Shown piece after piece: positions 37,724-53,187 of a stretch of DNA of 64,000 nt. Positions within the stretch are counted from its first letter, which is position 1. Every line of letters begins with the position of its first letter. The notes under the pieces are model-generated. The model saw nothing but the letters and a program-made list of their open reading frames with translations, was not told the DNA's origin and made no database searches. Origin of the DNA: a virus. The translations under genes were made by a program, and so were the position numbers. The stretch spans positions 1 to 64,000 of the IMG/VR virus record IMGVR_UViG_3300024264_000011; one strand, 5' to 3'.

Positions 37724-37745
37724 GTGTTTGGTTTCGTATGTGGCT

Positions 37746-37774
37746 ATTGTACAGGGTCAGGAGTCAGGCGTCAA
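37746..37774 (-). promoter_or_regulatory. Early sigma70-type promoter
   Basis: TTGACG-17-TACAAT; its 21-bp -10/leader (37731-37751) is repeated exactly at 38001-38021. Confidence 0.75.
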
Positions 37775-37991
37775 CCCCAAAGAGCAGGTCAGCGATCTGC
37801 TCTACCTGATCCACACCAGCACGGCACCACTTGTAAGCAGCACCGTTGTGTGGCACACACCAGACGACACAGGGTTCGCCGAATGCATCAGCAAGGCGGT
37901 AAGCGTGGTTGATGTCGGTTGCCCACTCACAACCCCACTCATCAAAGGTGCCGTAGGAAGCAGGTTGAACGGCGAAGTTTGAAGTGAGCAT
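37764..37991 (-). CDS. Early hypothetical protein
   Basis: NFAVQPASYGTFDEWGCEWATDINHAYRLA; downstream of the -10 at 38016-38021. Confidence 0.65.
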   Translation of the reverse strand: MLTSNFAVQPASYGTFDEWGCEWATDINHAYRLADAFGEPCVVWCVPHNGAAYKWCRAGVDQVEQIADLLFGVDA

Positions 37992-38015
37992 GTGTCCTTT
38001 GTTTCGTATGTGGCT

Positions 38016-38070
38016 ATTGTAGTCTCTAGCCCCCTCCTCTGAGAGGGCCGTTGTGCCAGTTCAGAAATCG
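38016..38070 (-). promoter_or_regulatory. Early promoter module (degenerate dyad)
   Basis: -10 TACAAT at 38016-38021; half-site tgtgcca at 38052-38058. Confidence 0.55.
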
Positions 38071-38222
38071 ATCTCGTCTGAGCGTCCATAAGCAGCAAGT
38101 CCTGTAGTCTGGTCTGGCATAGCACCTAGTTGCTGCAGCATGCTGAGATCCTCCAAACGTGTCAGCAGTTCGCTGGTGTCGGTGGCGTCACGAAGCAGGG
38201 CGATGAGTTGTTCTTTGTTCAT
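38061..38222 (-). CDS. Hypothetical protein (53 aa)
   Basis: Hand-translated MNKEQLIALLRDATDTSELL...DEIDF. Confidence 0.6.
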   Translation of the reverse strand: MNKEQLIALLRDATDTSELLTRLEDLSMLQQLGAMPDQTTGLAAYGRSDEIDF

Positions 38223-38257
38223 GGTGTTGTGTGAGTGAGTGAGTGGATGAGTAAGGG

Positions 38258-38395
38258 TTAGAAATTATCGTCATAATCGTTCTCTCTGATGTCATCTTCA
38301 GAGAGTTTGGGAGCATCATCGTCCCATCGTGGTTCCTCTTGTAGGAACACATCGGCGCAGTCTAAGTATGCGATCTCGTTGATTTCGTCGTTCAT
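38258..38395 (-). CDS. Small, highly acidic protein (45 aa)
   Basis: MNDEINEIAYLDCADVFLQEEPRWDDDAPKLSEDDIRENDYDDNF. Confidence 0.55.
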   Translation of the reverse strand: MNDEINEIAYLDCADVFLQEEPRWDDDAPKLSEDDIRENDYDDNF

Positions 38396-38437
38396 GTGAT
38401 TTAAAAGGATGATGTGATTAAGTGGGGGGATTGACCC

Positions 38438-38764
38438 CTATGCGAGACGCATACCGGAACGAAACTCAGTGGTGAAAAACTCTGTACCGTTCCACAATCT
38501 GATGAACCACTCAAAGTTTTTCTGGAATACACCCTCTCCAGTGACACCGTGTTCTGAAAGAATTGCATTCAAACGTGACTTAGTGGTGTTTGACTGATAA
38601 CCCCCATCATACAGTTTGATCGAATCGTCTGTGATTTCTGCGATCAGATTGTTGTGAAGATAGACAGAGGAGACACCCTCGACGGTCTCAACGCGAGTGT
38701 TTGCAGTTCTCCAGTCTGTACCCTCTGAGATTGCATTGTTCATGAGGGTTTCGATTTTACGCAT
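38438..38764 (-). CDS. Conserved early cyanophage protein, paralog 1
   Basis: MRKIETLMNNAI...DGGYQSNTTKSRLNAI...GVFQKNFEWFI. Confidence 0.8.
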   Translation of the reverse strand: MRKIETLMNNAISEGTDWRTANTRVETVEGVSSVYLHNNLIAEITDDSIKLYDGGYQSNTTKSRLNAILSEHGVTGEGVFQKNFEWFIRLWNGTEFFTTEFRSGMRLA

Positions 38765-38823
38765 GATGAAAGAAGAGAGAAGGTCTGAGAGGTGTGGTGA
38801 GGTGTGATCCCCTCCACTCCTTT

Positions 38824-38882
38824 AATATACACGATTTTAGGGGTCTGTGGGGGTTTAGTGGACACTTTGGTGAACTGTCCAC
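38824..38882 (-). promoter_or_regulatory. Early promoter + perfect dyad
   Basis: -10 TATATT at 38824-38829; GTGGACA-N11-TGTCCAC at 38858-38882. Confidence 0.75.
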
Positions 38883-38920
38883 CTCAGGATCGATTTCGCT
38901 ACATTTTGTGCAATACTGAT

Positions 38921-39052
38921 TTACCTTGATTTTTGAATCGTTGAATCATAGTAATTCATCATCTTACTATCACGTTCCGCAAGGAATAACAGATAGCAAG
39001 TCATACCCATGATAACACAGATTCCACTCAGTAAGTATTGCGTAACTCTCAT
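38921..39052 (-). CDS. Small membrane protein (43 aa)
   Basis: MRVTQYLLSGICVIMGMTCYLLFLAERDSKMM; ATGA overlap. Confidence 0.55.
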   Translation of the reverse strand: MRVTQYLLSGICVIMGMTCYLLFLAERDSKMMNYYDSTIQKSR

Positions 39053-39339
39053 TGTACCTCTACTAATTCTTGTTGATATGACATGAATTGCTCCTCTGTA
39101 ACCTCATCCACACACTCTTGAATCACCTGATAGATGTAATCAATGTTTCCAACATCATCAAAGATACGTCTAATCAATGCAGTATTTTCTACCTGATGAT
39201 CATAATCAACCTCACCATTTTCATCCTTTACATGTATATCATTCTTGGTATAAATCCATGCGGCACATTCTGCATCCTCCCCCTGTTGTGCAATCATTTC
39301 ATTCACACGGTCTTGGAGTTGTTTGAGAGTGTAGTTCAT
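39049..39339 (-). CDS. Conserved early hypothetical protein
   Basis: MNYTLKQLQDRVNEMIAQQGEDAECAAWIYTK. Confidence 0.7.
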   Translation of the reverse strand: MNYTLKQLQDRVNEMIAQQGEDAECAAWIYTKNDIHVKDENGEVDYDHQVENTALIRRIFDDVGNIDYIYQVIQECVDEVTEEQFMSYQQELVEVQ

Positions 39340-39376
39340 GAGTTTGTGTTAGATAGTGTGAATGGGTGAGTGTAAC

Positions 39377-39703
39377 TTAAGCAAACTCAGCGAATGTGTA
39401 ACCATCAACGAAATCATGGATGACTTTGTTGTCACGAATGAACCACTGAAAATCCTTCTGAAAGACACCATCAGTGAACGCACAACAGAACTCGTTGATG
39501 ATAGCGTTGAGACGTGATTTAGTTGTGTTTGATTGATACCCACCATCAAAGATGGTAACAAAGTCATCACCAACCTTTGCAATCAAGTTACCATGCAAAC
39601 GCACCTCAGACACACCGTCTTCAGTGGTAACACTAGTGTTTGCGTTAGTCCAGTTCTTGTTTGACTTGATCGCGTTGTTCATCTGGGTTTCGATCTTACG
39701 CAT
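39377..39703 (-). CDS. Conserved early cyanophage protein, paralog 2
   Basis: MRKIETQMNNAI...DGGYQSNTTKSRLNAI...GVFQKDFQWFI; same length (108 aa) as paralog 1. Confidence 0.8.
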   Translation of the reverse strand: MRKIETQMNNAIKSNKNWTNANTSVTTEDGVSEVRLHGNLIAKVGDDFVTIFDGGYQSNTTKSRLNAIINEFCCAFTDGVFQKDFQWFIRDNKVIHDFVDGYTFAEFA

Positions 39704-39731
39704 GGTTTGACTCCGTTTGGTTGATGTAGCT

Positions 39732-39789
39732 ACAATACACGATTTTGAGGTCAGTGACGAAACCGTGTGACACTAGTCTGACTGTCACA
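39732..39789 (-). promoter_or_regulatory. Early promoter + perfect dyad
   Basis: -10 TATTGT at 39732-39737; TGTGACA-N10-TGTCACA at 39766-39789. Confidence 0.72.
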
Positions 39790-39973
39790 GACCGTTCAGA
39801 TAGTCTGCAAGTTCCTGATCATACTGTTCTTTCGTGTCAAAGGTGCGACCATAGATGACACAGGGGAACGTCTTGTCGAGACCTGCAGACGCGACCATCT
39901 CGCAGTCTTGTCGATCGTATCCCATCTCGACAAGGGTGTTCACGTAGGGGTTGTTTGAAAGGGTTTTGTTCAT
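39785..39973 (-). CDS. Hypothetical protein (possibly leaderless mRNA)
   Basis: NPYVNTLVEMGYDRQDC; ATG only 6 nt downstream of the -10 box. Confidence 0.7.
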   Translation of the reverse strand: MNKTLSNNPYVNTLVEMGYDRQDCEMVASAGLDKTFPCVIYGRTFDTKEQYDQELADYLNGL

Positions 39974-39979
39974 GTAGCT

Positions 39980-40037
39980 ACAATACAGGATCAGGGGACG
40001 AAATCAATTGATCGTGGACGGTTCACCGATTGTCCAT
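39980..40037 (-). promoter_or_regulatory. Early promoter + dyad
   Basis: -10 TATTGT at 39980-39985; GTGGACG-N10-TGTCCAT at 40014-40037. Confidence 0.7.
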
Positions 40038-40241
40038 TCGTTTTACTCCGTGATTAACAAACTTCCATCCATCTTCGATCGCATCGATGCGAGACACATA
40101 ACTTTCGTACCGATTCATCATTTTAAAATGGTGTCTGGGTTCTTGGTTCCTGTTGACGGTAGTTTTATCGAAAATCCAGACGTTGTACCCATACTTTCCT
40201 TTTCTGACTAGAACAGGTGAAACAGAACCTTTTTTAATCAT
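40023..40241 (-). CDS. Hypothetical protein
   Basis: 72-aa ORF, stop lies inside the dyad spacer. Confidence 0.6.
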   Translation of the reverse strand: MIKKGSVSPVLVRKGKYGYNVWIFDKTTVNRNQEPRHHFKMMNRYESYVSRIDAIEDGWKFVNHGVKRMDNR

Positions 40242-40249
40242 GAGAACAA

Positions 40250-40607
40250 TTCAGTGATTTTTGATTGGACTGACTGATGACTCATAGTATAACTGGAGGA
40301 GTAGAACAGATTAAATCCCAATCATATTCACCTCTACGATATAACATTGACTCACTACGTATACCATACTTACTGTCTTGTTCTTTATACACATTCTCTA
40401 GAGATGGGAGGACTTGATTATACATCCAGTCCTTAGCATTATCATTTTGACCTTTCTGAAGATAACCGATTGTTGTCAATAAATCACTAATAGTTTGACG
40501 AAGATGTTCCTCATGAGTCTCAGGACCGACACCCATTTTGATCATGTAGTCTGACATAGTTTGAAATTCAGTTAAACAGTTCAGTGATTTTTGATTGGAC
40601 TGACTGA
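40250..40607. repeat. 28-bp exact direct repeat flanking one gene
   Basis: ttcagtgatttttgattggactgactga at 40250-40277 and 40580-40607. Confidence 0.9.
40282..40557 (-). CDS. Hypothetical protein (91 aa) between direct repeats
   Basis: Likely start MSDYMIKMGV at 40557. Confidence 0.6.
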   Translation of the reverse strand: MSDYMIKMGVGPETHEEHLRQTISDLLTTIGYLQKGQNDNAKDWMYNQVLPSLENVYKEQDSKYGIRSESMLYRRGEYDWDLICSTPPVIL

Positions 40608-40717
40608 GACAATTCGGTCTCAGTCTCTCCATGATCTTGATAGTCTGCAAGTGCATCGTAGATCGCATTCCACTCATCTTCAGTGAAAAACTCTTTGATG
40701 ATGTTGTACATTGACAT
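40568..40717 (-). CDS. Small acidic hypothetical protein
   Basis: MSMYNIIKEFFTEDEWNAIYDALADYQDHG. Confidence 0.65.
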   Translation of the reverse strand: MSMYNIIKEFFTEDEWNAIYDALADYQDHGETETELSQSVQSKITELFN

Positions 40718-40727
40718 TGTGTTTGAT

Positions 40728-40922
40728 TCAGTCAAGGGTGAATGTTTTCTCAGAGATGACATTGAATTCATCGTCCATGGTCACATAATTCCATTCGTTG
40801 TCGTCCTCTCCCTCTTGGTAGAGGTGCAGAACACCCTCTGAATCGGTCTTGACGTAACAGTCATCAAAGTTCTCAGTGTCGAGAACGTAACCTGATGCGA
40901 TGAGTCCTTGAGTGAAATCCAT
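40728..40922 (-). CDS. Acidic hypothetical protein
   Basis: MDFTQGLIASGYVLDTENFDDCYVK...; start at 40922. Confidence 0.65.
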   Translation of the reverse strand: MDFTQGLIASGYVLDTENFDDCYVKTDSEGVLHLYQEGEDDNEWNYVTMDDEFNVISEKTFTLD

Positions 40923-40943
40923 GTGGTTTTTTGACTTGAAACT

Positions 40944-41001
40944 ACAATACACGATTTTGACCCCCATATGGGGGTCAGTGGACACCTTCTAGACTGTCAC
41001 A
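40944..41001 (-). promoter_or_regulatory. Early promoter + dyad, with a stem-loop over the -35 region
   Basis: -10 TATTGT at 40944-40949; palindrome tgacccccatatgggggtca; GTGGACA-N10-TGTCACA at 40978-41001. Confidence 0.72.
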
Positions 41002-41126
41002 GGACAAAGTGAATCAAATGCATCGCAAAGTTCATCGATCAAAATGTCATTTGGTTTCTTTGGAAAGTGAGAATCAACAATCTCATAGATTTTTTCAATC
41101 ATTTGATCCTTTTGAGTTTGTGTCAT
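40989..41126 (-). CDS. Hypothetical protein (45 aa)
   Basis: MTQTQKDQMIEKIYEIVDSHF...IDELCDAFD; stop lies inside the dyad. Confidence 0.55.
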   Translation of the reverse strand: MTQTQKDQMIEKIYEIVDSHFPKKPNDILIDELCDAFDSLCPVTV

Positions 41127-41153
41127 TTTGGTCCAAATCTTGACTACCAACTA

Positions 41154-41211
41154 ACAATACAGGATCTAGATCTAAAATCAAGTGATAATGGACAGTTCAT
41201 GAATTGGTTGC
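41154..41211 (-). promoter_or_regulatory. Early promoter + degenerate dyad
   Basis: -10 TATTGT at 41154-41159, TTGAtt -35, ATGGACA at 41188-41194. Confidence 0.6.
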
Positions 41212-41403
41212 AGGCCCACTGTCAATCTTCTGACTGTCACATAACTTCTTTACATTTTTGTATTCACAGTTGTATACTACTAGACGAGTTTGTTGTTGTT
41301 TAGGAAACTCATCACCTAAAAGTATACTTAATGACCATTCACAAATGAATATAACCTTTCCTGTATTGTTCTTGTAGTTTACTAGATCTCCAATTTTAAA
41401 CAT
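41197..41403 (-). CDS. Hypothetical protein (KOW/SH3-like)
   Basis: MFKIGDLVNYKNNTGKVIFIC. Confidence 0.6.
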   Translation of the reverse strand: MFKIGDLVNYKNNTGKVIFICEWSLSILLGDEFPKQQQTRLVVYNCEYKNVKKLCDSQKIDSGPATNS

Positions 41404-41647
41404 TATTGATCCTCTTATTATAGTGATTACGAATTATTTCCATTAATGATTGCTGTAACTTAGGATCAGATGTTTCATTATATGCTTGTATATACAATGC
41501 CATTGCATCATCTGGCCGTGGTATTGTCATACCTTTCTTTGACAAACTATACTTACTAAGTTCATATGTGCCTGGGCGTGTCTTTATCTTTTGTCTTCCA
41601 AAGTTGCCAGTGACAGCACCTTTCATCCTGGGCATCTTTGAAGCCAT
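41396..41647 (-). CDS. Basic hypothetical protein
   Basis: 83-aa ORF behind a consensus promoter. Confidence 0.65.
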   Translation of the reverse strand: MASKMPRMKGAVTGNFGRQKIKTRPGTYELSKYSLSKKGMTIPRPDDAMALYIQAYNETSDPKLQQSLMEIIRNHYNKRINNV

Positions 41648-41676
41648 AGAGCATCCTTTGAACGTCTGACAGAGCT

Positions 41677-41705
41677 ATTATACAGAGTTTCTGTCATGCT
41701 GTCAA
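41677..41705 (-). promoter_or_regulatory. Consensus sigma70 promoter
   Basis: TTGACA-17-TATAAT exact. Confidence 0.85.
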
Positions 41706-41710
41706 GGGGT

Positions 41711-42174
41711 TGTGGAAAAGTAGTTTTCCACACGTACATATTACATATGATAATAATTTCACATGTCATGTATATGCATATATCATATGTTAATAATTTA
41801 GTAAACTATCCAAGTATACTCAGAAGACCTTAGAGGGGTCTTAGAGGTCCTTCTAGGGGTCTCTGAGAGCACATATACACACATATCATATGTTAATAAT
41901 ATGCATACATATGATAATAATTTAAATCTCTGAGTTTTCCACAGGGCCTCGGAGGTTTTCTGAGCTTGGCGACCTTGACATTTTCATAGATTGCGGGTAA
42001 AGGTAACAACAACTCAGAGGATTACCAGAGGTTTATCATAGATTACCACACACATATGATAATAATCCCCTCTTACATACACATATGATAATAATTACAA
42101 AACTCTCAGCCACATTTAATTAACCATTCTTTTTCCACAGGTTTTTCCACAATTTATGCGGAACTTGTGGATAA
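41711..42174. other. Origin-like non-coding element: 6 DnaA boxes + 6 iteron-like repeats
   Basis: TT(T/A)TCCACA at 41711(-), 41724, 41935, 42131, 42143, 42166(-); CATATG(A/T)TAATAAT at 41744, 41784, 41887, 41908, 42053, 42082; longest ORF-free stretch in the window. Confidence 0.7.
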
Positions 42175-42177
42175 AGG

Positions 42178-42753
42178 TCAAGCATACCATCCAACTAATG
42201 TTATTCTCTGACCTTTCTTCAATGGTTTGACTCTATGTGGCACAGTCGATGGGAACACAATGAAATCACCATAGTTAAACTTATGAGTAAAGATTGAATC
42301 ATCTTGTTGTATTTGAAACTCTCCACCTACATAATCTTTCTTATGAGATAGACAATACACAATACTGATTCTTCTTATACCCATGTTATGTTTTTCATTT
42401 AGAGCAGTACACTCTGGGTAGTAATCTTTATGCCAACCATAGTGATGTCCTTTATCAGTATATCTTGTATATTGAATATGACTTTCCCATTTGTTATCTA
42501 ATGGCAGTTTCCATTGTTGATCATTACAATGGCGAATGATGTTAGCGAATCCTTCATTGATGAAATTAACTGAATCTGTTGGAATCCAGTTTGTATGACA
42601 CTTTCGGAGTTTACCATTGACACCATCAAGTAACGAACCTTCACCTGGTTGTTCATCTTTGAAACAGAGATTACATGTGTCTTGTACTTCATCAGTTGCT
42701 TTATCATTACCTAAGTTACCAATAATGAATTCAGGTCGGATGAGTTGTTTCAT
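42178..42753 (-). CDS. 2OG-Fe(II) oxygenase
   Basis: YGWHKD...RRISIV...YVGGEF...FPSTVPHRVKPLKKGQRITLVGW (HxD...H, R). Confidence 0.88.
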   Translation of the reverse strand: MKQLIRPEFIIGNLGNDKATDEVQDTCNLCFKDEQPGEGSLLDGVNGKLRKCHTNWIPTDSVNFINEGFANIIRHCNDQQWKLPLDNKWESHIQYTRYTDKGHHYGWHKDYYPECTALNEKHNMGIRRISIVYCLSHKKDYVGGEFQIQQDDSIFTHKFNYGDFIVFPSTVPHRVKPLKKGQRITLVGWYA

Positions 42754-43121
42754 TGTCTCCATTTAGGTTGTTTGTCCCATGATTGTTCAATCAGTTGTGA
42801 TACCAATTGATCACGCAAGTTGTTGATCTTATCTTCAGTGAATTGAGCGAAGTTATCTCTCTTGTCCACTTTCTTGTAATAATGCAAAGCATTCAGTATT
42901 ATTGTTTGTTCAGTCATTGTAAGTTGGTACTGATGTGTTTCATGAATCAAGAAACAATCAATTGGAAATAATCCTTCCTTATTCTTAACCTTAACTTTCT
43001 TTTCTTGAATGTTCTCAAGTGTGTAAGTATAACCAAGAATCAACGTCGATCGATTTGGTGCTGGTCCTGGTTGTTTAATGAGTTCAATACGATCGCCTGG
43101 TTTCATTTCTTTACGGGCCAA
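42750..43121 (-). CDS. Hypothetical protein
   Basis: 123-aa ORF (start may be ATG at 43106); ATGA coupled to the oxygenase. Confidence 0.55.
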   Translation of the reverse strand: MARKEMKPGDRIELIKQPGPAPNRSTLILGYTYTLENIQEKKVKVKNKEGLFPIDCFLIHETHQYQLTMTEQTIILNALHYYKKVDKRDNFAQFTEDKINNLRDQLVSQLIEQSWDKQPKWRQ

Positions 43122-43172
43122 CTAAATTCTAATGTGATTGTAAGTAGAATAATGAAGAAAAATATAAAAACA

Positions 43173-43436
43173 CTAGACATGTTCTTGTAACTTATACTCT
43201 TTCTTATCTAGTTGATATCGACGAATATACTTTTCTGCATGTTCATAACATTGAAAATGACATACTTTATTCTCTTTACGATCCTCTAATCTCCATGGAA
43301 ATGTAGAATACGGAAACAACTTAGTATCCTTTGATTTTGTCCATTTGATCTCCGTCTCTTTGACTTTACGTTTCCGTGTTGTCTTTTCTGTGAGTTTGGC
43401 AATATTACGTGCAAGAGCATTTTGTGTCTTAGACAT
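43173..43436 (-). CDS. Conserved cyanophage hypothetical protein
   Basis: LFPYSTFPWRLEDRKENKVCHFQCYEHAEKYIRRY. Confidence 0.7.
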   Translation of the reverse strand: MSKTQNALARNIAKLTEKTTRKRKVKETEIKWTKSKDTKLFPYSTFPWRLEDRKENKVCHFQCYEHAEKYIRRYQLDKKEYKLQEHV

Positions 43437-44043
43437 AAGGACCTTCCTTGATTGCATTCTTATCAAAGACATACTCATCATACATTACATAATCATCCTT
43501 ATCATAATCACATTGGAATACTGGATCTTGTTTAAACTCTTCCATCTCCTTGTAGAACTCATCTAGATCATCATACAATCCTTGATAGTATGAATCAAAG
43601 TGAACTAATTGATCAACTGGGAAGTGTTGAAGAAATACATTCACTGCATCATTAGAATATGTTGATGAATACCCTTGATAGTCATCATAATACTTTTGAA
43701 ACTGATCTAATGGTAGATTTTCTGTTGCTGCATCAAAGATATCATCAATGATCCAATTATGATTCTCTTTAAACGTTTGTAGATCAGTTAGATATATGAG
43801 AAGATCAGTTTCTTGTTTATCACATGATGCTTCTTCAGCAACTTCTTCAAACTTATTCTCTCCAACATCAGAAATAATACTATTCACAATCTCATGAAAG
43901 ATACTGATCTTTTCATATTCTTCAGTGAGATGTTCAAATAGAATTTCATTCTTTTCTGCATCAGACATATGTTCTAATCTATACCATGTTGCAGCGGAGA
44001 TGAGATCATACTCCTTAGAATCAATTTCAGAAAATACAGTCAT
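43429..44043 (-). CDS. Acidic ArdA-like antirestriction/DNA-mimic candidate
   Basis: Very D/E-rich; C-terminal FDSYYQGLYDDLDEFYKE...DY...YVF resembles the ArdA C-terminus. Confidence 0.55.
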   Translation of the reverse strand: MTVFSEIDSKEYDLISAATWYRLEHMSDAEKNEILFEHLTEEYEKISIFHEIVNSIISDVGENKFEEVAEEASCDKQETDLLIYLTDLQTFKENHNWIIDDIFDAATENLPLDQFQKYYDDYQGYSSTYSNDAVNVFLQHFPVDQLVHFDSYYQGLYDDLDEFYKEMEEFKQDPVFQCDYDKDDYVMYDEYVFDKNAIKEGPYV

Positions 44044-44342: not shown

Positions 44343-44539
44343 CAGTGAGTTACCTTGAAACAAACAGAATTGAATTTACCTGTGATACCTTCTAATGATA
44401 CCTTTGTGTGTTGTCGATGAACTTCTACATCAGTGAGAATGTATACTTCATTCAGTATACATGGTGGCCAATCATTGTTACCCCACTGTTGTTGTTCCTT
44501 GGTACAACCTATAAACTGTACACGATCACCTGGGTTCAT
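44342..44539 (-). CDS. Conserved hypothetical protein
   Basis: GDRVQFIGCTKEQQQWGNND...EVHRQHTKVSL..GKFNSVCF. Confidence 0.7.
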   Translation of the reverse strand: MNPGDRVQFIGCTKEQQQWGNNDWPPCILNEVYILTDVEVHRQHTKVSLEGITGKFNSVCFKVTH

Positions 44540-44717
44540 TTCGATATTCCTCTAATATATCTACGTCGTTTCCATACAGTCCCATGTTCATGTAAACACA
44601 ATCAAGAAATCTTAAATCATCAATCGATGCACCTAATGTAAACTCATCACAATAACGAATGATTGCTGGTGGAACTGGAATTTCTTGGTAATTCATTTCA
44701 ATAAAAAATGGAATCAT
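44526..44717 (-). CDS. Hypothetical protein
   Basis: EIPVPPAIIRYCDEFT...LRFLDCVYMNMGLYGND. Confidence 0.65.
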   Translation of the reverse strand: MIPFFIEMNYQEIPVPPAIIRYCDEFTLGASIDDLRFLDCVYMNMGLYGNDVDILEEYRNEPR

Positions 44718-44872
44718 TTCCCTCCTGTGTCATAGTTGAGTTTGTCATCATCTGATTTTAGATTTGCAATTTTAACTCGATTGTGCAATTGATTTAATGC
44801 TGCAATCACTTCTGGAGTTTCTTCCCATTCCCAAGTTTCTCCACCTTTCTTAGTAAATTCTTTCTTTGTCAT
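44714..44872 (-). CDS. Small hypothetical protein, paralog of 51819-51962
   Basis: MTKKEFTKKGGETWEWEETPEV...DTGGK. Confidence 0.65.
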   Translation of the reverse strand: MTKKEFTKKGGETWEWEETPEVIAALNQLHNRVKIANLKSDDDKLNYDTGGK

Positions 44873-45043
44873 TTGCGACTCTCCTGTAGTATTTGATTGA
44901 CTTGAGTTTTTTCCTCGAAAGTCATAGCCTTCCAAAGACTATCTATCTTATCATACAATGGTTGTTTATGTCGAGTGTCTGTCCAGAGTGTAAACCAGAT
45001 GTCCAAATACTCTTCCACCAATGATACTTTGAGTTTTTCTTGC
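44869..45043 (-). CDS. Small hypothetical protein
   Basis: MQEKLKVSLVEEYLDIWF...LWKAMTFEEK; ATGA overlap. Confidence 0.55.
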
Positions 45044-45130
45044 ATTTCTAGAGGTGAGCAGGGTGCAATGGGTCGGAAAGAGGGAAAATATGGAAAAAAC
45101 ACGTCTTCCCTCTAGTGGTGGACTGGGTTC

Positions 45131-46537
45131 TCAGTACGTCCCGATCCAAGACCGACCCCGTACCACCGATGAACAGTATTGTTTGGTGAATACTTCTGTT
45201 GCACATTTCCACGTAGAAGTATTGGGCAAATAAACATCAAAAGAGTTATTTGCAACCAACTGATTAATTAATGTAGGGTTATCTTTGATAGACCTTGCAT
45301 AATCAGTAAGATCATAATCATCAAGTTCAACACCAGGATTTAAACGCACAAGACGACCAAGTTGTTGAAGAAAACTGATGATGATTTCTTCACCACTAGA
45401 ATCACGTTTGATATTACTGCGGAATGACATATAAGATGACAAGTTCTTGATATCCATTCCACATTTACCTTTCTCAACTGTCAGTAGAAATGTCAGTGGA
45501 TGTTCTGGATCACGAAGATTTTCTTTGATTTCATCGTCACCATCATCACACACAATACGAGATCCATTGATAGAATACATTGCTTTTTCTTCAGCTGACA
45601 TAATTGCAAGAATAGGTTCATCACGATCAAACCAAGGATTCTGTTCCAGATAGTCTAGAATTTGTTTTTTTGTATATTCAATAGTCCAGGGATTTGCATT
45701 TTTACTGTCAATATTTGGAGCACACTGAATCATCATAGTTTGTTTTTTGTTTGCAAGTCCACGACGATTAGTGAATTTTGACAGTGCATTTTGCAGTGCA
45801 AAAACTGCATCTGACATGTCAAATAACTCACAATTATCTAACCATGCACTCCTACCAATCAAGAGTTCCTTTGGACAAAATTGATTTACAATACAGAACT
45901 CCATACCAGGAGCTGGGTTAATCTTATTCAGATGTTCTGCATTGGGTGTTGCAGTGATACCAAAAATCTTTGATGTAATTTTAGATACATTCATACACCA
46001 CTTAAACAAGACTGCATTATAGTCCGATGGAGTGTTACCAGTTACATTCTTGTAATTCTCAAAACAGGAAACAGTCCACAAATGTGCTTCGTCAATGATC
46101 ACTGCACAATCTGTATTGGTTTTAACCAACCATTCACCAAACTCTTTTCCTGCAGTTCCACCAGACAGAGAAGCATGATTAATTGTCAAAAGAACTGGAA
46201 TACCTTTGTTGATTTCTTTTTTTACTTTTGCAAACAAACGTTTGTTGTTTTTATGTCCACGAGTGCTTTCAAATTTTGCACCACACTCGAATGCAATATC
46301 TTCAAACAGATCATCCTCACGAACAGAATCTTCTGGTACTGAGTATATGGTTAACTTAGTTTTTTTGTTACGAATAAGTTCAGGAATCCAATCATATACA
46401 CAAGAGTGAGTTTTACCCTGACCAGTCACACCAGTGAAGATGTGCATTTTATTCCTGAGAGTATCAAAATTATTACGATCTACTAGTTCCATGAAAGGAT
46501 TAACTAGGTAGTCAATGCGTGGATCAGTCATGGACAT
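45131..46537 (-). CDS. Divergent superfamily-2 (ResIII-like) helicase/ATPase
   Basis: Walker A TGVTGQGKT, IIDEAH, TATP, motif VI QQLGRLVR. Confidence 0.8.
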   Translation of the reverse strand: MSMTDPRIDYLVNPFMELVDRNNFDTLRNKMHIFTGVTGQGKTHSCVYDWIPELIRNKKTKLTIYSVPEDSVREDDLFEDIAFECGAKFESTRGHKNNKRLFAKVKKEINKGIPVLLTINHASLSGGTAGKEFGEWLVKTNTDCAVIIDEAHLWTVSCFENYKNVTGNTPSDYNAVLFKWCMNVSKITSKIFGITATPNAEHLNKINPAPGMEFCIVNQFCPKELLIGRSAWLDNCELFDMSDAVFALQNALSKFTNRRGLANKKQTMMIQCAPNIDSKNANPWTIEYTKKQILDYLEQNPWFDRDEPILAIMSAEEKAMYSINGSRIVCDDGDDEIKENLRDPEHPLTFLLTVEKGKCGMDIKNLSSYMSFRSNIKRDSSGEEIIISFLQQLGRLVRLNPGVELDDYDLTDYARSIKDNPTLINQLVANNSFDVYLPNTSTWKCATEVFTKQYCSSVVRGRSWIGTY

Positions 46538-46555
46538 TTGATTGATTACTTGGCT

Positions 46556-46614
46556 AATATACAGGTTATGGGGTCGGAAGTCAAGGGGTTGTGACCAGTT
46601 CGTAAACTGGACTA
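46556..46614 (-). promoter_or_regulatory. Early promoter + degenerate dyad
   Basis: TTGACT-17-TATATT; GTGACCA-N10-TGGACTA at 46591-46614. Confidence 0.7.
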
Positions 46615-47850
46615 AGCAAATACCTCAACCGACTTACCTTCCTTAAAAATAGAGTCAACAACATACTGGAGACGTTTTGCAACAGCACCACCATGATTCT
46701 TATGAACTGGGACAGTCACAAACCCAGTAGATTTGCGATAGAGTTGACACTGACCTGCAGGAATCTTACCGGATTGAATATCTTTGATATCGTCAATATG
46801 CAGACGGATAACACGACCGATAGTCTGTGCCATCTCAATCAATGGAAGATTACGCAGCAAAATGCAGTGAGTCAAACCAGGTACGTTGATACCCTCAGAC
46901 AGAATGGAATAGTGAAACAACAGGAATTTCTTGTTGTCATCTTTACCATAACGAGTCAGAGTGTCAAAGAATACCTCACGACTCACTTTTGTTTTGTTGA
47001 CATATGCACCGTGTTTAGAGGTGATATGCATGATCTCAAAACCACGTTCTGTGAGTTGTTGAATCACATCAGATTGTGTCAACATGTTCCACAGAACGCG
47101 AGTCGATGGTGCAGCAACTAATACTTTGGATGCATTAGTTTCATCAAGTGTGTCAAGAATACTCAGGACAGTTTCACTATCAACCTGTGCAGCAGTATCC
47201 TTCTGACGTACAATGTCAGTCTCGTGAGTATGAATAGTGGGAGGAATGATCGAACCAGACTCAATCAGTTCTTGTGCAGGTACTTTTTCAATCACATCTC
47301 CGTACACAAAAGTATTATTCATACCGTTTGCATGTGGGTCGCGATTGTTACGCGGAGTCGCAGTGAAGTAATACGAACGACGCGCAATCATGGACGCAGA
47401 TGCAACAGACTTGAAGAAATCTCTGCGGGTAGAGTTATGTGCTTCATCACAATACATCACGTCAATGTCAATACCTGCACTCACAACCTTGTTCAAAGAG
47501 TTGTAAGTAGTGAAGATGATGCAGGACTCAGATGCAGCACGCGCAACGTTGTTGAACATTGCGATCTTGTCAGATTTGGTGGAAGAGAAATACTCAGTCT
47601 CACCACTGTGAACATGACAAACATGCACCCATGTGCGAGAGATTTGTTCCATGAACTCACTGCAAAGTTGGTTTGCAAGGAGAATACGTGGAGAAACAAC
47701 TACGATGGTCTTAGGACCACTCTTAAGAGCGTTGATTGCATCAACAATCATGCACAGAGTCTTACCACCACCAGTAGGAACAAAGATGCGACCTTTGTTG
47801 AATTCCTGCATCTTGTTAGTGATGCGGGTTTGGTGGGAACGAAGAATCAT
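46612..47850 (-). CDS. DEAD/DEAH-like (type III restriction Res-subunit family) helicase
   Basis: VPTGGGKT, YCDEAH, FTATP, ILSEGINVPGL, QTIGRVIR. Confidence 0.9.
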   Translation of the reverse strand: MILRSHQTRITNKMQEFNKGRIFVPTGGGKTLCMIVDAINALKSGPKTIVVVSPRILLANQLCSEFMEQISRTWVHVCHVHSGETEYFSSTKSDKIAMFNNVARAASESCIIFTTYNSLNKVVSAGIDIDVMYCDEAHNSTRRDFFKSVASASMIARRSYYFTATPRNNRDPHANGMNNTFVYGDVIEKVPAQELIESGSIIPPTIHTHETDIVRQKDTAAQVDSETVLSILDTLDETNASKVLVAAPSTRVLWNMLTQSDVIQQLTERGFEIMHITSKHGAYVNKTKVSREVFFDTLTRYGKDDNKKFLLFHYSILSEGINVPGLTHCILLRNLPLIEMAQTIGRVIRLHIDDIKDIQSGKIPAGQCQLYRKSTGFVTVPVHKNHGGAVAKRLQYVVDSIFKEGKSVEVFA

Positions 47851-47873
47851 GCAGTACGTCTCTCAATGTGGCT

Positions 47874-47902
47874 AATATACGCGAAAACCCCCTTGGGGTC
47901 AA
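47874..47902 (-). promoter_or_regulatory. Early sigma70-type promoter
   Basis: TTGACC-17-TATATT with the shared tagccacat leader. Confidence 0.72.
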
Positions 47903-47927
47903 GGGGGCGAACGATCAGTCTCTCTTA

Positions 47928-48170
47928 TCAGTCTACTTGTTCTGTATTAGATATTCTTTCCAACCACAAAAAGGCATAGTCGTCTCCTTCTTTTGCTGTT
48001 CCCCATTCTTTATACTCTTGCACCAAAGCGTATATGTCTCTCCACTTATTTTGTCTTTCTAGTTTGCACATCCGTTCTTCAACTATTTCTAGTTGAGTGT
48101 CAATGATTTCCTCTGCATTTGTATCAATGTCTTCAAACAGGATGAAGAACTTACTCAGTTGGTCACTCAT
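47928..48170 (-). CDS. Hypothetical protein
   Basis: 80-aa ORF, ATGA coupled. Confidence 0.65.
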   Translation of the reverse strand: MSDQLSKFFILFEDIDTNAEEIIDTQLEIVEERMCKLERQNKWRDIYALVQEYKEWGTAKEGDDYAFLWLERISNTEQVD

Positions 48171-48487
48171 TTTAGTTTCTTGAAGAATTTATAAGCACAG
48201 TATACTGCGCCGCCTACCAGAAGGAAAGGCCAGAAAGTTACAACCAGTAAAATTGTACCTCCTAGGACAATCCAGAAGAAAGTTACATCACTTGTGTTGT
48301 TTGAAACAAAGTTTACAGCGTTAGAAGCACCAGATCGGAATGAATCACTCACAGATCTGGTAGAAAGAACTTTGCCAGCATATTGTGCTGAACCTTGTTC
48401 ACGTGCTTCTTTGTGAGTGATACAATCATCTACAGGTTTCCAACTAAGTCTACCTGAAGGTGTCCTAACTAATACTTCAAATGCCAT
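48167..48487 (-). CDS. Membrane protein (C-terminal TM)
   Basis: FFWIVLGGTILLVVTFWPFLLVGGAVYCAYKFFKK. Confidence 0.65.
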   Translation of the reverse strand: MAFEVLVRTPSGRLSWKPVDDCITHKEAREQGSAQYAGKVLSTRSVSDSFRSGASNAVNFVSNNTSDVTFFWIVLGGTILLVVTFWPFLLVGGAVYCAYKFFKKLK

Positions 48488-48735
48488 TAAAGTGTGCCTG
48501 CGTTGTTGATGAACTCTTTAGCGTCACTTACAGTATTGAAATTCCCAACAAACTGATACTCAGGTCCGCTGTCTGTTTCAATAACTTTTTTGATCGAGAA
48601 ACCACCGTTCTCTTTATCTTCGTAGATAGCACCGATGATTTCACCATTGTTGTAGACGACCTCATTGTAAAGAACAAACTTGAGATTGCGGTGGTATTTA
48701 ATACCAGTAGTGTCTTCGATGTGCATCATAATCAA
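48487..48735 (-). CDS. Hypothetical protein
   Basis: 82-aa ORF coupled at both ends. Confidence 0.65.
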   Translation of the reverse strand: MIMMHIEDTTGIKYHRNLKFVLYNEVVYNNGEIIGAIYEDKENGGFSIKKVIETDSGPEYQFVGNFNTVSDAKEFINNAGTL

Positions 48736-49013
48736 ACGAATTGAAGATCGGGAACGTTAGTTACAGAGAAGTTATTGAGTTGTTTAGGATTCTGTCCCAC
48801 GGATACGTTAGGGGGCAAGATGCTGAATTGATCATACAGAACCCAGTCATCTTCATGTTCTGCAATAACAGCAAAACCGAAAACTCCTGCGGTTGGCAAC
48901 ATGTAAAGACCATGTTTTTCTGCCTGTTTGAGTGATGCAAACCCACGAGCAGTGATGGTCCAGGTGATACCTGACTGATCACCACCGAAGTAAGCGCAGA
49001 TGAAGTCGGTCAT
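48732..49013 (-). CDS. Conserved early hypothetical protein
   Basis: MTDFICAYFGG...ARGFASLKQAEKHGLYMLPTAGVFGFAVI. Confidence 0.65.
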   Translation of the reverse strand: MTDFICAYFGGDQSGITWTITARGFASLKQAEKHGLYMLPTAGVFGFAVIAEHEDDWVLYDQFSILPPNVSVGQNPKQLNNFSVTNVPDLQFV

Positions 49014-49035
49014 TCGTGTTCCTCTCAACATGGCT

Positions 49036-49093
49036 AATATACACCAGATCAGGGTCTGATGGGGAGATGGTGGACACTTCCCTGACTGTCACC
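49036..49093 (-). promoter_or_regulatory. Early promoter + dyad
   Basis: -10 TATATT at 49036-49041; GTGGACA-N10-TGTCACC at 49070-49093. Confidence 0.72.
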
Positions 49094-49256
49094 AGATCTC
49101 AGTCCATCGTTTGTGGTTTGATTTGCTGATTCTACCTTGATTAAGCATGTTATCACACACTCTCACGAACACTTGAAACTTTTCCTCGCGAGTGAGAGTA
49201 TCTGCACCGTCACATTTTGACATGACGTTGATCATTTGTGTTTTGGAAGTAATCAT
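49089..49256 (-). CDS. Conserved small cyanophage protein (55 aa)
   Basis: MITSKTQMINVMSKCDGADTLTREEKFQVFVRVCDNMLNQGRISKSNHKRWTEIW; stop lies inside the dyad. Confidence 0.7.
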   Translation of the reverse strand: MITSKTQMINVMSKCDGADTLTREEKFQVFVRVCDNMLNQGRISKSNHKRWTEIW

Positions 49257-49283
49257 CAGTCGAGAACAGAAATTAGCTAATAA

Positions 49284-49436
49284 TTAACCTCCAAACATGT
49301 CGTCGAATAGTTGTTGTCCAGAACGCTCATCATTTTCGTATTTCTTTGCATATTGCGCCATGCGTTCTAGTGCTTCATCGCGAGAGATTGACTCGGGGAA
49401 GAAATACTCACGGCCTGATGGAGTTGTGTAGCGCAT
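49284..49436 (-). CDS. Small hypothetical protein (50 aa)
   Basis: MRYTTPSGREYFFPESISRDEAL...LFDDMFGG. Confidence 0.65.
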   Translation of the reverse strand: MRYTTPSGREYFFPESISRDEALERMAQYAKKYENDERSGQQLFDDMFGG

Positions 49437-49463
49437 TGGGTTTGTTCCCTTGAGTACCTTGTA

Positions 49464-49523
49464 ATTATAAACCCTCCGACAACTCGCCGAGGGCCTCCTG
49501 TAGACAGTTCTGCAAGTGGTTGT
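49464..49523 (-). promoter_or_regulatory. Early promoter + degenerate dyad
   Basis: -10 TATAAT at 49464-49469; GTAGACA at 49500-49506. Confidence 0.6.
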
Positions 49524-49570
49524 AGAGACCACTGTCGTCAACGTCGTGATGGGCAGCAAGGTTTCTGGTG

Positions 49571-50122
49571 TCATTTAATGAAATGATGTGGATTATTTTT
49601 ATTATGTAGTGCATCAAACATGAGTGAAATGCCTACGGTATTACCAACATTTACAATACCATATGGTAAATGATGATTGAACCAATATAACACACCAGGA
49701 TCCAAACGGAGTAAGTTCCCACCAATAAGCATATGGTAGGTTGACTGTAATGGCAAAAAATATCTATCTCTCGTCTTATAATAATTACCGTCATCAACGT
49801 TTGGTTTGACAACAGCACCTGGGTTCATCTTAATAAAACCAGTTCTACATGGTTTTTTTACTTTTATATCTCTAAAGAAGTCTTTTACTTCACTATATTT
49901 TTCTAAAAACTCGGTACTTACTTGTTTGTCATTATCTTTTACATTACAACTAAATGAGTTTTTAACAGTAATTAAGGGTACAATTTTAGTTTGTTCTAAA
50001 TTGTGCCCAAATATAATACGATCTTGATCATTCATATAGTTCCAATCTTTCCAGTTATCATATAACTTAGAAACGAAAGGACTTACATCAATATTATTTT
50101 TTACTACTACTATACTATTCAT
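49571..50122 (-). CDS. Aspartyl/asparaginyl beta-hydroxylase-like protein lacking iron ligands
   Basis: PGAVVKPNVDDGNYYKTRDRY...PGVLYWFNHHLPYGIVNVG..GISLMFD; family fold motifs present but the His positions read N and Y. Confidence 0.7.
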   Translation of the reverse strand: MNSIVVVKNNIDVSPFVSKLYDNWKDWNYMNDQDRIIFGHNLEQTKIVPLITVKNSFSCNVKDNDKQVSTEFLEKYSEVKDFFRDIKVKKPCRTGFIKMNPGAVVKPNVDDGNYYKTRDRYFLPLQSTYHMLIGGNLLRLDPGVLYWFNHHLPYGIVNVGNTVGISLMFDALHNKNNPHHFIK

Positions 50123-50127
50123 TTGTG

Positions 50128-50289
50128 TTACGATGTCATAATTTTTTCGTAAAGTGAATCAAACATCTCTTTGTCGTAATTAGTGCGACCACCAGCAATT
50201 CCATGCTCCCACACATCCATCATAATTTCTTGCAACAAAACTATTTCCTCGTAAGAAAGATTTTCAATAGAAAGATTGTTAATTGACAT
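50128..50289 (-). CDS. Small hypothetical protein (53 aa)
   Basis: MSINNLSIENLSYEEIVLLQEIMMDVW...FDSLYEKIMTS. Confidence 0.6.
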   Translation of the reverse strand: MSINNLSIENLSYEEIVLLQEIMMDVWEHGIAGGRTNYDKEMFDSLYEKIMTS

Positions 50290-50291
50290 AA

Positions 50292-50543
50292 TTAGCATGA
50301 ACAAGCGAGGGCAGAGTTAAAAAATTGTGGATCTGTGTGAATGTCGGTCACTTCGTAACCATAACCATAAACACGGGAATCAATCTCACGTTGCATATCT
50401 TTTTTGTTGATGTAACGCATGGATTGTTTATCTTTCATGAAAGTAACAATTTTGAGCATGTGACGGTTGTTGGTAGTTCCATCAGCATATTTGACGGGAT
50501 AGAAATCAACAACCATGGAAGAATCTTTAGATGTGAGTTGCAT
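50292..50543 (-). CDS. Conserved early hypothetical protein
   Basis: MQLTSKDSSMVVDFYPVK...EIDSRVYGYGYEVTD. Confidence 0.7.
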   Translation of the reverse strand: MQLTSKDSSMVVDFYPVKYADGTTNNRHMLKIVTFMKDKQSMRYINKKDMQREIDSRVYGYGYEVTDIHTDPQFFNSALACSC

Positions 50544-50571
50544 CGTTTGGGGTGTTTCTCTTAACATGGCT

Positions 50572-50631
50572 AATATACATCACATGAGAGGGGTCTACAA
50601 GCGTCTGTGGGACACTTCAACCACCGTCTAC
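50572..50631 (-). promoter_or_regulatory. Early promoter + dyad
   Basis: TTGTAG-17-TATATT; TGGGACA-N10-CGTCTAC at 50608-50631. Confidence 0.62.
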
Positions 50632-53140: not shown

Positions 53141-53169
53141 ATAATATAGGCAAGTTCCCTCCTTGTCAA
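53141..53169 (-). promoter_or_regulatory. Sigma70-type promoter
   Basis: TTGACA-17-TATTAT. Confidence 0.75.
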
Positions 53170-53187
53170 GGGCCGGAACGAAAAAAA

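Follow-up and report, generated by a model that had tools for sequence, protein, structure and literature searches.

Repeated early-type promoter units with a putative protein-binding palindrome at small genes of a T4-like cyanophage

Ten small genes of the viral contig IMGVR_UViG_3300024264_000011, the first 64,000 nucleotides of which form the window described here, are each headed by one copy of a repeated promoter unit. We think it reasonably probable that these units are early-type promoter cassettes with a palindromic site for a protein, likely an activator and with a PlmA-type regulator as candidate, and that they double as recombination patches. The cassettes would belong to a T4-like cyanophage of the family Kyanoviridae, and each would be a -10-driven promoter for the unmodified host RNA polymerase, with a -35 element that is weak or absent in many copies. 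Upstream lies a rigid 24-bp palindrome, centered some 52 nt 5' of the presumed start site, which would be occupied by a dimeric or oligomeric protein acting on the promoter. Its likeliest role would be that of an activator site compensating for the missing -35, and a host PlmA-type regulator would be the best candidate binder. As the unit of about 85 bp recurs at many gene boundaries, it would also offer short patches of homology at which general T4-type recombination may swap or drop small genes without a site-specific recombinase.

Architecture and recovery of the units

All genes within 36–54 kb are encoded on the minus strand, and the units are therefore read 5' to 3' on this strand. Read in this way, a unit consists of the left half GTG(G)(A/C)CAGTT, 4 nt, the right half AACTG(T/G)C(C)AC, a spacer of 28–30 nt and a -10 box (TATATT, TATTGT, TACAAT or TATAAT), followed by a leader (AGCCA(C/T)(A/G)T or AGCTACAT), a Shine-Dalgarno sequence and ATG (Table 1). 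Each of the ten units contains the palindrome, or its promoter-proximal half alone, 28–30 nt 5' of the -10 box. While no unit lacks a -10 box, a -35 element (at least 4/6 matches at 16–18 nt) was observed only in some (46561, 47879, 39985, and 50577). An earlier note on this DNA had described ten repeated modules, and this description was borne out with regard to the common strand, the dyad or proximal half at 28–30 nt from the -10 box, and the conserved leader.

The contig was searched with a weight matrix of the right half combined with a TAnnnT box at 34–36 nt, trained on units from other phages only. This model recovered all ten sites at exactly the positions given in the earlier note. At a score of at least 8, 12 matches were detected in the 107-kb contig vs. 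a shuffle mean of 2.2, and 10 of the 12 fall in 38–51 kb on a single strand. By dyad sequence alone, only four sites (38858, 39766, 40978, and 49070) stand above chance; a dyad-only scan gave 3 hits with up to one mismatch vs. 0.57 expected, and 63 with up to three mismatches vs. 72 expected. We nevertheless consider the six "degenerate" copies valid, because their position is fixed and better copies occur at equivalent places in relatives. At 50608, 41188, and 38052 and in the 47879 type, the right half stands alone or the site is decayed, and a proper dyad is absent at the 47879, 41682, 37751, and 53146 promoters.

Table 1. Promoter units and nearby promoters, all on the minus strand. The lowest coordinate of each dyad or right half is the right-half position of the unit.
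Feature	Coordinates	Palindrome	-35	-10 box	Leader; start codon	Upstream stop and remarks
Unit 1	50547–50631	right half only, 50608–50617		TATATT, 50572–50577	AGCCATGT; likely 50549	TGA of glycine-zipper gene adjoins right half; better dyad at equivalent place in relatives
Unit 2	49434–49523	weak left half, 49514–49523; right half AACTGTCTAC, 49500–49509		TATAAT, 49464–49469	49436	GC hairpin in spacer
Unit 3	49011–49093	full dyad, 49070–49093		TATATT, 49036–49041	AGCCATGTTGAGAGGAACAC; 49013	TGA within left half
Unit 4	46535–46614	dyad TCCAGTT-N4-AACTGGTCAC, 46591–46614	TTGACT	TATATT, 46556–46561		TAG within left half; downstream of UvsW-like helicase
Unit 5	41124–41211	right half AACTGTCCAT, 41188–41197		TATTGT, 41154–41159	41126	TGA immediately precedes right half
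Unit 6	40920–41001	full dyad, 40978–41001		TATTGT, 40944–40949	40922	TAG in 4-nt gap; GC hairpin in spacer
Unit 7	39971–40037	degenerate dyad ATGGACAAT-N4/5-AACCGTCCAC, 40014–40037		TATTGT, 39980–39985	39973	TGA in gap between halves
Unit 8	39701–39789	perfect dyad TGTGACAGT..AGTGTCACA, 39766–39789		TATTGT, 39732–39737	39703 (Kyano_Gp96 copy 1)	TGA within left half; unit identical in relative L013
Unit 9	38762–38881	perfect dyad GTGGACAGTT-N4-AAAGTGTCCAC, 38858–38881		TATATT, 38824–38829	long leader; 38764 (Kyano_Gp96 copy 2)	
Unit 10	37989–38075	right half AACTGGCACA, 38052–38061		TACAAT, 38016–38021	AGCCACAT; 37991	TGA immediately precedes right half; L013 equivalent is AACTGTCACA
Helicase-gene promoter	47851–47911	right half decayed; intact (AACTGTCACA) in relatives	TTGACC, in hairpin loop	TATATT, 47874–47879		terminator-like GC hairpin with T-run
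Dyad-less promoter	37724–37775		TTGACG, 17 nt to -10	TACAAT	AGCCACATACGAAAC, as in unit 10	
Dyad-less consensus sigma-70-type promoter	41648–41710		TTGACA, 17 nt to -10	TATAAT		

Eight of the 10 units have the stop codon of the upstream gene inside the dyad footprint, as listed in the earlier note, and so do 31/46 units elsewhere; in the 38858 and 49500 units the stop is located 40–50 nt upstream instead. The stop occurs in the palindrome in at least eight registers. It lies there because packing brings the coding sequence right up to where the functional bases of the unit begin, and the "swallowing" of stop codons is therefore real, but follows from gene packing and does not need a special mechanism.

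Rigid geometry and spread among cyanophages

For comparison, 68 non-redundant cyanophage units from dozens of IMG/VR contigs were collected by their -10 box and leader alone, and distances were measured from the TG preceding the -10 box. The right half starts 34–36 nt 5' of this anchor in 50/68 units but in none of 34 chance-hit controls, and the left-half core is found at 45–47 nt in 38/68. The gap between the halves is 4 nt in 50 of 51 units. While the sequence of the spacer between dyad and -10 box is variable, its length is fixed, and units with a right half only retain the same distance. With 50 of the 68 units showing this arrangement, the element is conserved across T4-like cyanophages; isolates carrying it include S-T4, S-CAM9, S-8S53/55/56, and S-PRM1.

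Doron et al. (2016, ISME J 10:1437; working on Syn9 and P-TIM40) reportedly described a "novel regulatory element" that precedes the early genes of T4-like cyanophages, which is said to be distinct from host-like -35/-10 promoters and to be abundant and conserved among these phages and in metagenomes. To our knowledge, no binding protein was named. By this description, the conservation of that element in T4-like cyanophages and metagenomes matches the spread of our unit; however, only one unit of the exact type was present in the approximately 51 kb of Syn9 scanned.

A host half-site and candidate binding proteins

The phage units share their 9-bp half-site GTG(A/C)CAGTT, and its complement, with the host element CGRE1 (Lambrecht et al., 2018, PMC6191309), which serves as operator at the Yfr2 small-RNA promoters of Prochlorococcus and marine Synechococcus. 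The GntR regulator PMM1637/PlmA binds CGRE1 according to pull-down, gel shift, and reporter assays, and the proximal end of CGRE1 lies about 55–57 nt upstream of the start site (PMC6191309). The phage-derived 9-mer was perfect in 16/41 regions upstream of picocyanobacterial Cyano-1/Yfr2 genes vs. about 0.07 expected. The end of the left half is 42–44 nt from the -10 hexamer in phages and 43–44 nt in hosts, and host Yfr2 promoters also have, at the +4 offset of the phage units, a weak element resembling the right half. Moreover, both elements are palindromic and reside in promoters with a -10 box but a poor -35.

The arrangement of the halves differs. In the host the right half is followed by 1 nt and the left half (21 nt), in the phage the left half by 4 nt and the right half (24 nt), two arrangements that one rigid PlmA dimer would not be expected to fit. 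The CGRE1 palindrome CAACTG(G/T)CAC-N-GTG(A/C)CAGTTG (21–22 nt) was not found among the phage units, the best of which has at least 3/16 mismatches, and sites in host order are absent among them. Because the half-site is shared and the left half is located at equal distance from the -10 box in phage and host, we nevertheless regard a PlmA-type regulator as the best candidate binder.

Alternatively, the dyad might be the operator of a phage-encoded protein, either a repressor of early promoters at the middle/late switch or a protein carried in with the DNA, which seems unlikely on balance. Such a binder would have adopted the host half-site or copied it. The arrangement of the halves unlike that of CGRE1 would suit this alternative, as would the lack of enrichment of phage-type dyads in five host genomes and the presence of 10 or more sites in 13 kb of phage DNA vs. 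1–3 per host genome, a density suggestive of a regulon across the phage. In addition, the contig is only about 58% complete, and the gene for the binder could therefore lie elsewhere. However, no GntR-type domain was found in the 107 kb, and early genes need a factor that is already present on entry. The left half at 43–44 nt from the -10 box as in host Yfr2 promoters, together with the host +4 element, likewise fits reuse of a host promoter type.

Stem-loop cassettes and gene exchange at the units

Promoter-early stem-loop cassettes (PeSLs) are known from RB49/phi1, T4/PST, and KVP40/nt-1 (Arbiol 2010, PMC2839356; Comeau 2014, PMC4122927) as composite terminator/promoter units that recur between the small genes of hyperplastic regions; they are linked to indels and replacements between close relatives, and homology-driven exchange has been proposed for them. 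In the cyanophage S-PM2 the density of PeSLs was judged low (Puxty et al., 2015, PMC4503421). The region described here resembles such arrays in that ten indel-associated units lie within 13 kb of a hyperplastic region. In contrast to PeSLs, which have near-consensus -35 boxes, the upstream dyad appears to be a sequence-specific site instead of a variable stem-loop, and the terminator hairpin, where present, is located between dyad and -10 box with the -35 in its loop.

It is very improbable that the dyad itself acts as a stem-loop, in RNA or DNA, of a PeSL-type terminator/promoter that would end or stabilize the upstream transcript. In favor of this reading are the palindromic form of the dyad and its place at the 3' end of the preceding ORF, a median folding energy of -4.8 kcal/mol for the 24-mer (z-score -1.7 vs. 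shuffles), and the stem-loop that PeSLs have just 5' of the promoter (PMC4122927). However, the two variable pairs show no compensatory changes: L5-R6 was 19 A-T, 11 C-G, 12 C-T, and 9 A-G, and L8-R3 was 28 G-C, 16 G-G, 4 C-C, and 1 C-G, with about 40% of cells mismatched. Furthermore, the dyad is not followed by a T-run, and the task of a terminator would be met by a separate GC hairpin inside the spacer in 22/51 units, several with a T-run, which overlaps the -35. Host promoters carry the same half-sites in a different order, and the search of Rfam gave no match, which also counts against a stem-loop. Because the distance to the -10 box and the 4-nt gap are rigid, compensatory changes are absent and units with a right half only exist, we infer from the sequences that the palindrome is bound as DNA by a protein and is not a hairpin. 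The proposal of the earlier note that the dyad is a regulator-binding site thus gains support in the form of a promoter-coupled protein site, as judged from rigid geometry and lack of covariation. Its suggestion that the dyad replaces the -35 holds in part: many units lack a -35, but some (46561, 47879) have a normal one, and the dyad is therefore not simply a -35 substitute.

Gene order in relatives was broken in 14/17 comparisons at dyad junctions vs. 36/73 at plain junctions (Fisher p = 0.016), although these counts are not independent owing to shared ancestry and because one lost gene breaks two junctions. Relative to the -10 box, break points were located at -50, -41, -35, -30, -10, and +27 to +82; they cover some 130 nt of the unit and extend past it. 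Some lie inside the unit, and some islands of homology are confined to it, such as unit 3 (-50 to +28) in the relatives L012/L013, where the flanking genes on both sides are unrelated. At unit 4, homology with seven relatives stops at -8 to -11, immediately 5' of the -10 box; at unit 5, homology with L008/L013 stops at -28 to -32; and at unit 6, homology with L013, which lacks the 45-aa gene flanked by units 5 and 6, begins at -35. Environmental contigs show swaps of single ORFs with units as boundaries, and at unit 7 they have, in place of the upstream ORF (40023–40238), 19 nt with which a better left half is regained. Further breaks in gene order make use of start codons, of a coding repeat of 35 bp or of paralogous genes.

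With its small ORFs next to promoters and the imperfect palindromes between them, the array recalls integron attC sites and gene cassettes; however, each phage unit has its own promoter, its palindrome is locked to the -10 box, and neither a fixed crossover point nor, in the 107 kb, a tyrosine integrase (Phage_integrase) was found, so that the statement of the earlier note that no integrase is visible holds for the whole contig. A dedicated integron-like system with crossover at the dyad is highly improbable, since the enrichment of breaks at dyad junctions, the two right halves flanking the 45-aa gene indel (40989–41126) and one environmental variant breaking exactly at the edge of a right half are set against scattered break points, breaks at half of the unit-less junctions, events at other repeats and genes, the missing integrase, a tight -10 distance that a recombination site does not need, and a half-site that also occurs in fixed, non-mobile host promoters. 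Of the recombination junctions claimed in the earlier note, the enrichment of gene gain and loss at the units stands, with break points scattered in position, while the dedicated cassette system does not. The units mark places of gene swaps between related viruses, which fits ordinary PeSL-like homologous exchange without a dedicated cassette machine.

PlmA is wired to the PII-PipX sensor of nitrogen and energy status. Tentatively, T4-like cyanophages may start infection by recruiting a host PlmA-type GntR regulator to a rearranged Yfr2 operator, in a unit that doubles as a homology patch. Half-sites and distance to the -10 box would be unchanged in this operator, but the partner half would have moved to the promoter side, and the site would therefore no longer lie inside the upstream gene. 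If this is true, the output of early genes would read the physiological state of the host, and the operator-promoter unit would also be the homology patch by which small early genes move between phages.

Composition of the promoter units

The window covers the opening 64 kb of an IMG/VR virus contig that measures 107,375 bp and is an estimated 58% complete. The 12.9-kb region with the units matched cyanophage records only (168 records, assigned to Synechococcus, Prochlorococcus or "Cyanophage"), the closest isolates being ACG-2014d genomes with ~84% identity across 5% of the region. Besides the two helicase-like proteins in the table, Pfam identified a 2OG-Fe(II) oxygenase, a glycine-zipper membrane protein and two copies of "Kyanoviridae Gp96" there. 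The cyanophage-only matches and the Pfam content mark it as the small-gene part of a T4-like cyanomyovirus. Every gene from 36 to 54 kb lies on the minus strand, and an Rfam search of this interval at E ≤ 1 returned no match.

Parts of the promoter unit, in order, and features of the surrounding region (window coordinates unless stated otherwise)
Feature	Position	Strand	Basis
Left half, GTG(G)(A/C)CAGTT	first part of unit	minus	
Gap between halves, 4 nt	second part of unit	minus	
Right half, AACTG(T/G)C(C)AC	third part of unit	minus	
Spacer, 28-30 nt	fourth part of unit	minus	
-10 box, mostly with G or TG just before it	fifth part of unit	minus	
Leader AGCCA(C/T)(A/G)T or AGCTACAT, then Shine-Dalgarno and ATG	sixth part of unit	minus	
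Overlapping terminator-promoters	47884-47908 (helicase promoter); ~53160-53185; contig ~106810-106853, outside the window		
UvsW-like helicase	46612-47850	minus	Pfam
Second DEAD/ResIII-like protein, 468 aa, directly after the UvsW-like helicase	45131-46537	minus	Pfam
Paralogous 108-aa "Kyanoviridae Gp96" genes	38438-38764; 39377-39703	minus	Pfam
~35-bp direct repeat	40575-40612; 40243-40280	minus	
92-aa gene between the repeat copies	40282-40557		
45-aa gene	40989-41126		

Searching with the bare dyad pattern gave just four copies above chance (38858, 39766, 40978 and 49070), and at three mismatches the count equaled that of shuffles. The weak copies were thus beyond validation by sequence alone, and therefore their position was tested. 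A weight matrix of the right half, trained solely on units of other contigs and used together with a TAnnnT box 34-36 nt further on, returned 50608, 49500, 49070, 46591, 41188, 40978, 40014, 39766, 38858 and 38052, exactly the ten places that the earlier note had named, and one further unit at 106,853, beyond the window. At scores of at least 8, 12 matches were found vs 2.2 in shuffles. At the places of the weak copies, relatives have better ones. In four other promoters of the region (53146, 47879, 41682 and 37751) the dyad was decayed or absent. A weight matrix of the -10 box and leader, trained on TATATTAGCC, missed the TATTGT/AGCTACAT class, and the plain TAnnnT test was used instead.

Naive ORF calling took an ATG within the conserved leader AGCCATGT as the start of two genes (49029-49031 and 50565-50567); translation probably begins instead at 49013 and 50549, where an ATG follows the Shine-Dalgarno sequence. 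Compact overlapping terminator-promoters were also observed, in which a GC hairpin with a T-run carries in its loop the -35 TTGAC(C/A) of the next promoter. In the one outside the window, a right half (AACTGTCCAC) also lies at the usual distance.

The dyad in related cyanophages

Units were fetched from IMG/VR by their -10/leader sequence alone, leaving the upstream region unbiased, and the set was enlarged with a small profile. After removal of near-duplicates 68 cyanophage-type units remained; 34 chance matches in unrelated contigs served as controls. Measured from the anchor, the TG ahead of the -10 box, the core of the right half began 34-36 nt upstream in 50 of the 68 units vs 0 of 34 controls, and that of the left half lay at 45-47 nt in 38 of the 68 vs none of the controls. 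Different units had unrelated sequences between dyad and -10 box, while the length of this spacer ranged over just 2 nt. The spacer contained a GC hairpin in 22 of 51 units, several of them with a T-run after it, and a TTGAC -35 in six units; in some of these the -35 lies in the hairpin loop, as in the helicase promoter.

A reading of the dyad as a hairpin or terminator was rejected for lack of covariation. The dyad does fold, with a median energy of -4.8 kcal/mol, as any palindrome must. Among the ten symmetric position pairs of the two halves, three were near-invariant, and the two variable ones, L5-R6 (19 A-T, 11 C-G, 12 C-T, 9 A-G) and L8-R3 (28 G-C, 16 G-G, 4 C-C, 1 C-G), showed no compensation, so that pairing within the dyad is apparently not under selection. 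The halves were separated by 4 nt in 50 of 51 units, and units with only a right half kept the same distance to the -10 box. Given this rigid gap, the rigid distance to the -10 box and the independent decay of the halves, the dyad behaves as the predicted DNA site of a protein held in register with RNA polymerase. This supports the activator site suggested in the earlier note, with the qualifications that some units have a usable -35 and that activation, as opposed to binding, is inferred.

Doron et al. in 2016 reportedly described a novel regulatory element of early genes, conserved among T4-like cyanophages, and the units are likely this element. The ~51 kb of Syn9 scanned contained one unit of exactly this type, and a loose pattern gave 97 matches vs 61 in the control; with one exact unit in the part scanned, the motif is therefore not tied to the published Syn9 early genes. 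Contigs of related phages were present in the RNA-library runs X15 and X16; as contigs carry no start, strand or level, they speak neither for nor against expression.

Relation to the host Yfr2 promoters

Picocyanobacterial genomes were obtained with a 16S probe, Cyano-1/Yfr2 RNA genes were located in 5 and then in ~80 of them, and the host motif was derived from these genomes by reading 41 regions upstream of Yfr2. The phage-derived 9-mer GTG(A/C)CAGTT was perfect in 16 of the 41 regions vs ~0.07 expected by chance, starting mostly 57-63 nt ahead of the RNA. Its end lay 43-44 nt from the -10 box in the hosts; for the phage units the figure was 42-44 nt. Synechococcus and low-light Prochlorococcus have the 9-mer as part of CAACTG(G/T)CAC-N-GTG(A/C)CAGTTG, which is the 21-nt CGRE1, the operator of the Yfr2 small-RNA promoters. 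As described, CGRE1 is 21 nt long with GTTG flanks, and 55-57 nt separate its proximal end from the start site; the GntR regulator PMM1637 (PlmA) bound it in pull-down and gel-shift assays and in an E. coli reporter (Lambrecht et al., 2018; PMC6191309).

The left half thus lies at the same place in both, whereas its partner lies upstream of it in CGRE1 and downstream of it in the phage unit: the host site reads right half, 1 nt, left half, and the phage site has the left half first and the right half after 4 nt. The host order was seen in none of the phage units, and the phage-type dyad was not enriched over a reversed control in five picocyanobacterial genomes. At the phage offset, hosts show a weak element resembling the right half (mean matrix score -6.6 vs -18.7 for background), and the phage contig encodes no GntR domain. 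We take this as strong evidence that the phage unit is a variant form of the Yfr2-type promoter of the host, and as only moderate evidence that PlmA itself binds it. The CGRE1/PlmA link, testable and to our knowledge unpublished, fails at the arrangement of the halves.

A second class of Yfr2 promoters, without the upstream half of CGRE1, was observed at the host loci L296, L298, L299, L314, L319, L324, L326, L328 and L332. Here (A/G)GG(A/C)CAGTT is followed after 4 nt by (T/C/G)AGCG.CC, an order like that of the phage with a different second half. The phage leader ..ATGTTGAGAGGAAC.. (e.g., 49011-49035) resembles by eye the 5' end of the host Yfr2 RNA, ..TGTGTGAGGAG.. (L292-L332), at a similar distance from the -10 box, and the whole unit, beyond the operator, may derive from a yfr2 promoter region. 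The 22-nt GTGACCGTGAGGAGAGTGCCAC, which surfaced as a two-mismatch match to the dyad pattern, is conserved in four picocyanobacterial genomes, G001-G004 (e.g., G002:C3:256590-256611).

Stop codons and gene turnover at the units

As listed in the earlier note, the stop codon of the upstream gene falls inside the dyad footprint in eight of ten units, and across the broader collection of units 31 of the 46 stops lay at -21 to -4 relative to the start of the right half. The stops occupy at least eight registers, some ORFs traverse the whole dyad, TGA is not over-used (7 of 10 genes upstream of units vs 24 of 43 elsewhere, no real difference), and genes at plain junctions of the region overlap or lie a few nt apart. 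By a simple packing rule, the upstream gene therefore ends at or within the first functional element that it reaches. As this suffices, a stop built into a fixed cassette boundary is not indicated, and left halves are more degenerate because the upstream gene runs into them.

Nine related contigs, fetched via the helicase, were mosaics of the window, and 52 gene junctions were scored in four lineages. Breaks were seen at dyad junctions in 14 of 17 informative comparisons vs 36 of 73 at plain junctions (odds ratio 4.8, p = 0.016), an enrichment that is suggestive only, because the counts are not independent; at other promoters 4 of 15 were broken. The helicase, its dyad and its spacer were homologous in all seven relatives with DNA there, and homology ended 8-11 nt before the -10 box of the unit at 46561. 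The unit at 49041 is itself an 80-nt island of homology in two relatives, with unrelated genes on either side; further ends of homology lay at -41, +27 and +29 to +82. The right halves of units 5 and 6 mark the two edges of an indel that comprises the 45-aa gene. In environmental contigs single ORFs were replaced at 40023-40238, 48730-49012, 50305-50548 and 47907-48497, the first of these by 19 nt that give a better left half.

The DEAD/ResIII-like protein had no homolog in any of eight related loci, all of which lose homology shortly ahead of the -10 box of the unit at 46561. Each Gp96 gene lies behind its own perfect dyad unit; one chimeric copy in the related phage contig L013 and joints between the two paralogs in environmental contigs point to unequal recombination between them. 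The ~35-bp repeat, with one copy within the 3' end of each of two small genes, flanks the 92-aa gene, which is absent from L013 and replaced by 29 nt in environmental contigs.

The earlier note had proposed the dyad as the recombination junction of a cassette system and alignment of relatives for break points at the dyads. Break points are indeed frequent in units, with dyad junctions enriched for them, but they are scattered and also fall outside (repeats, paralogs, plain junctions), any other repeat being used too. The contig, moreover, has no integrase, as the note had already remarked for the window. This picture fits homology-driven exchange like that of PeSLs (promoter-early stem-loop cassettes; PMC2839356, PMC4122927), not an integron-like system.

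T4-like cyanophages lack the Alt, Mod, MotA and AsiA of T4 (PMC2984593). The window offers a clean ten-unit example bearing on how they turn on their first genes, and the dyad as a predicted protein site, not a hairpin, is one of three usable facts from it. The half-site and its position are those of the host Yfr2/CGRE1 operator, whose binder is known, which makes the link directly testable; the differing arrangement of the halves must be accounted for by any binding model. Judging from relatives and environmental contigs, turnover in a cyanophage early region is concentrated at the units, yet not limited to them, a pattern that favors shuffling by homology, as with PeSLs, in a phage group where these were deemed unimportant.
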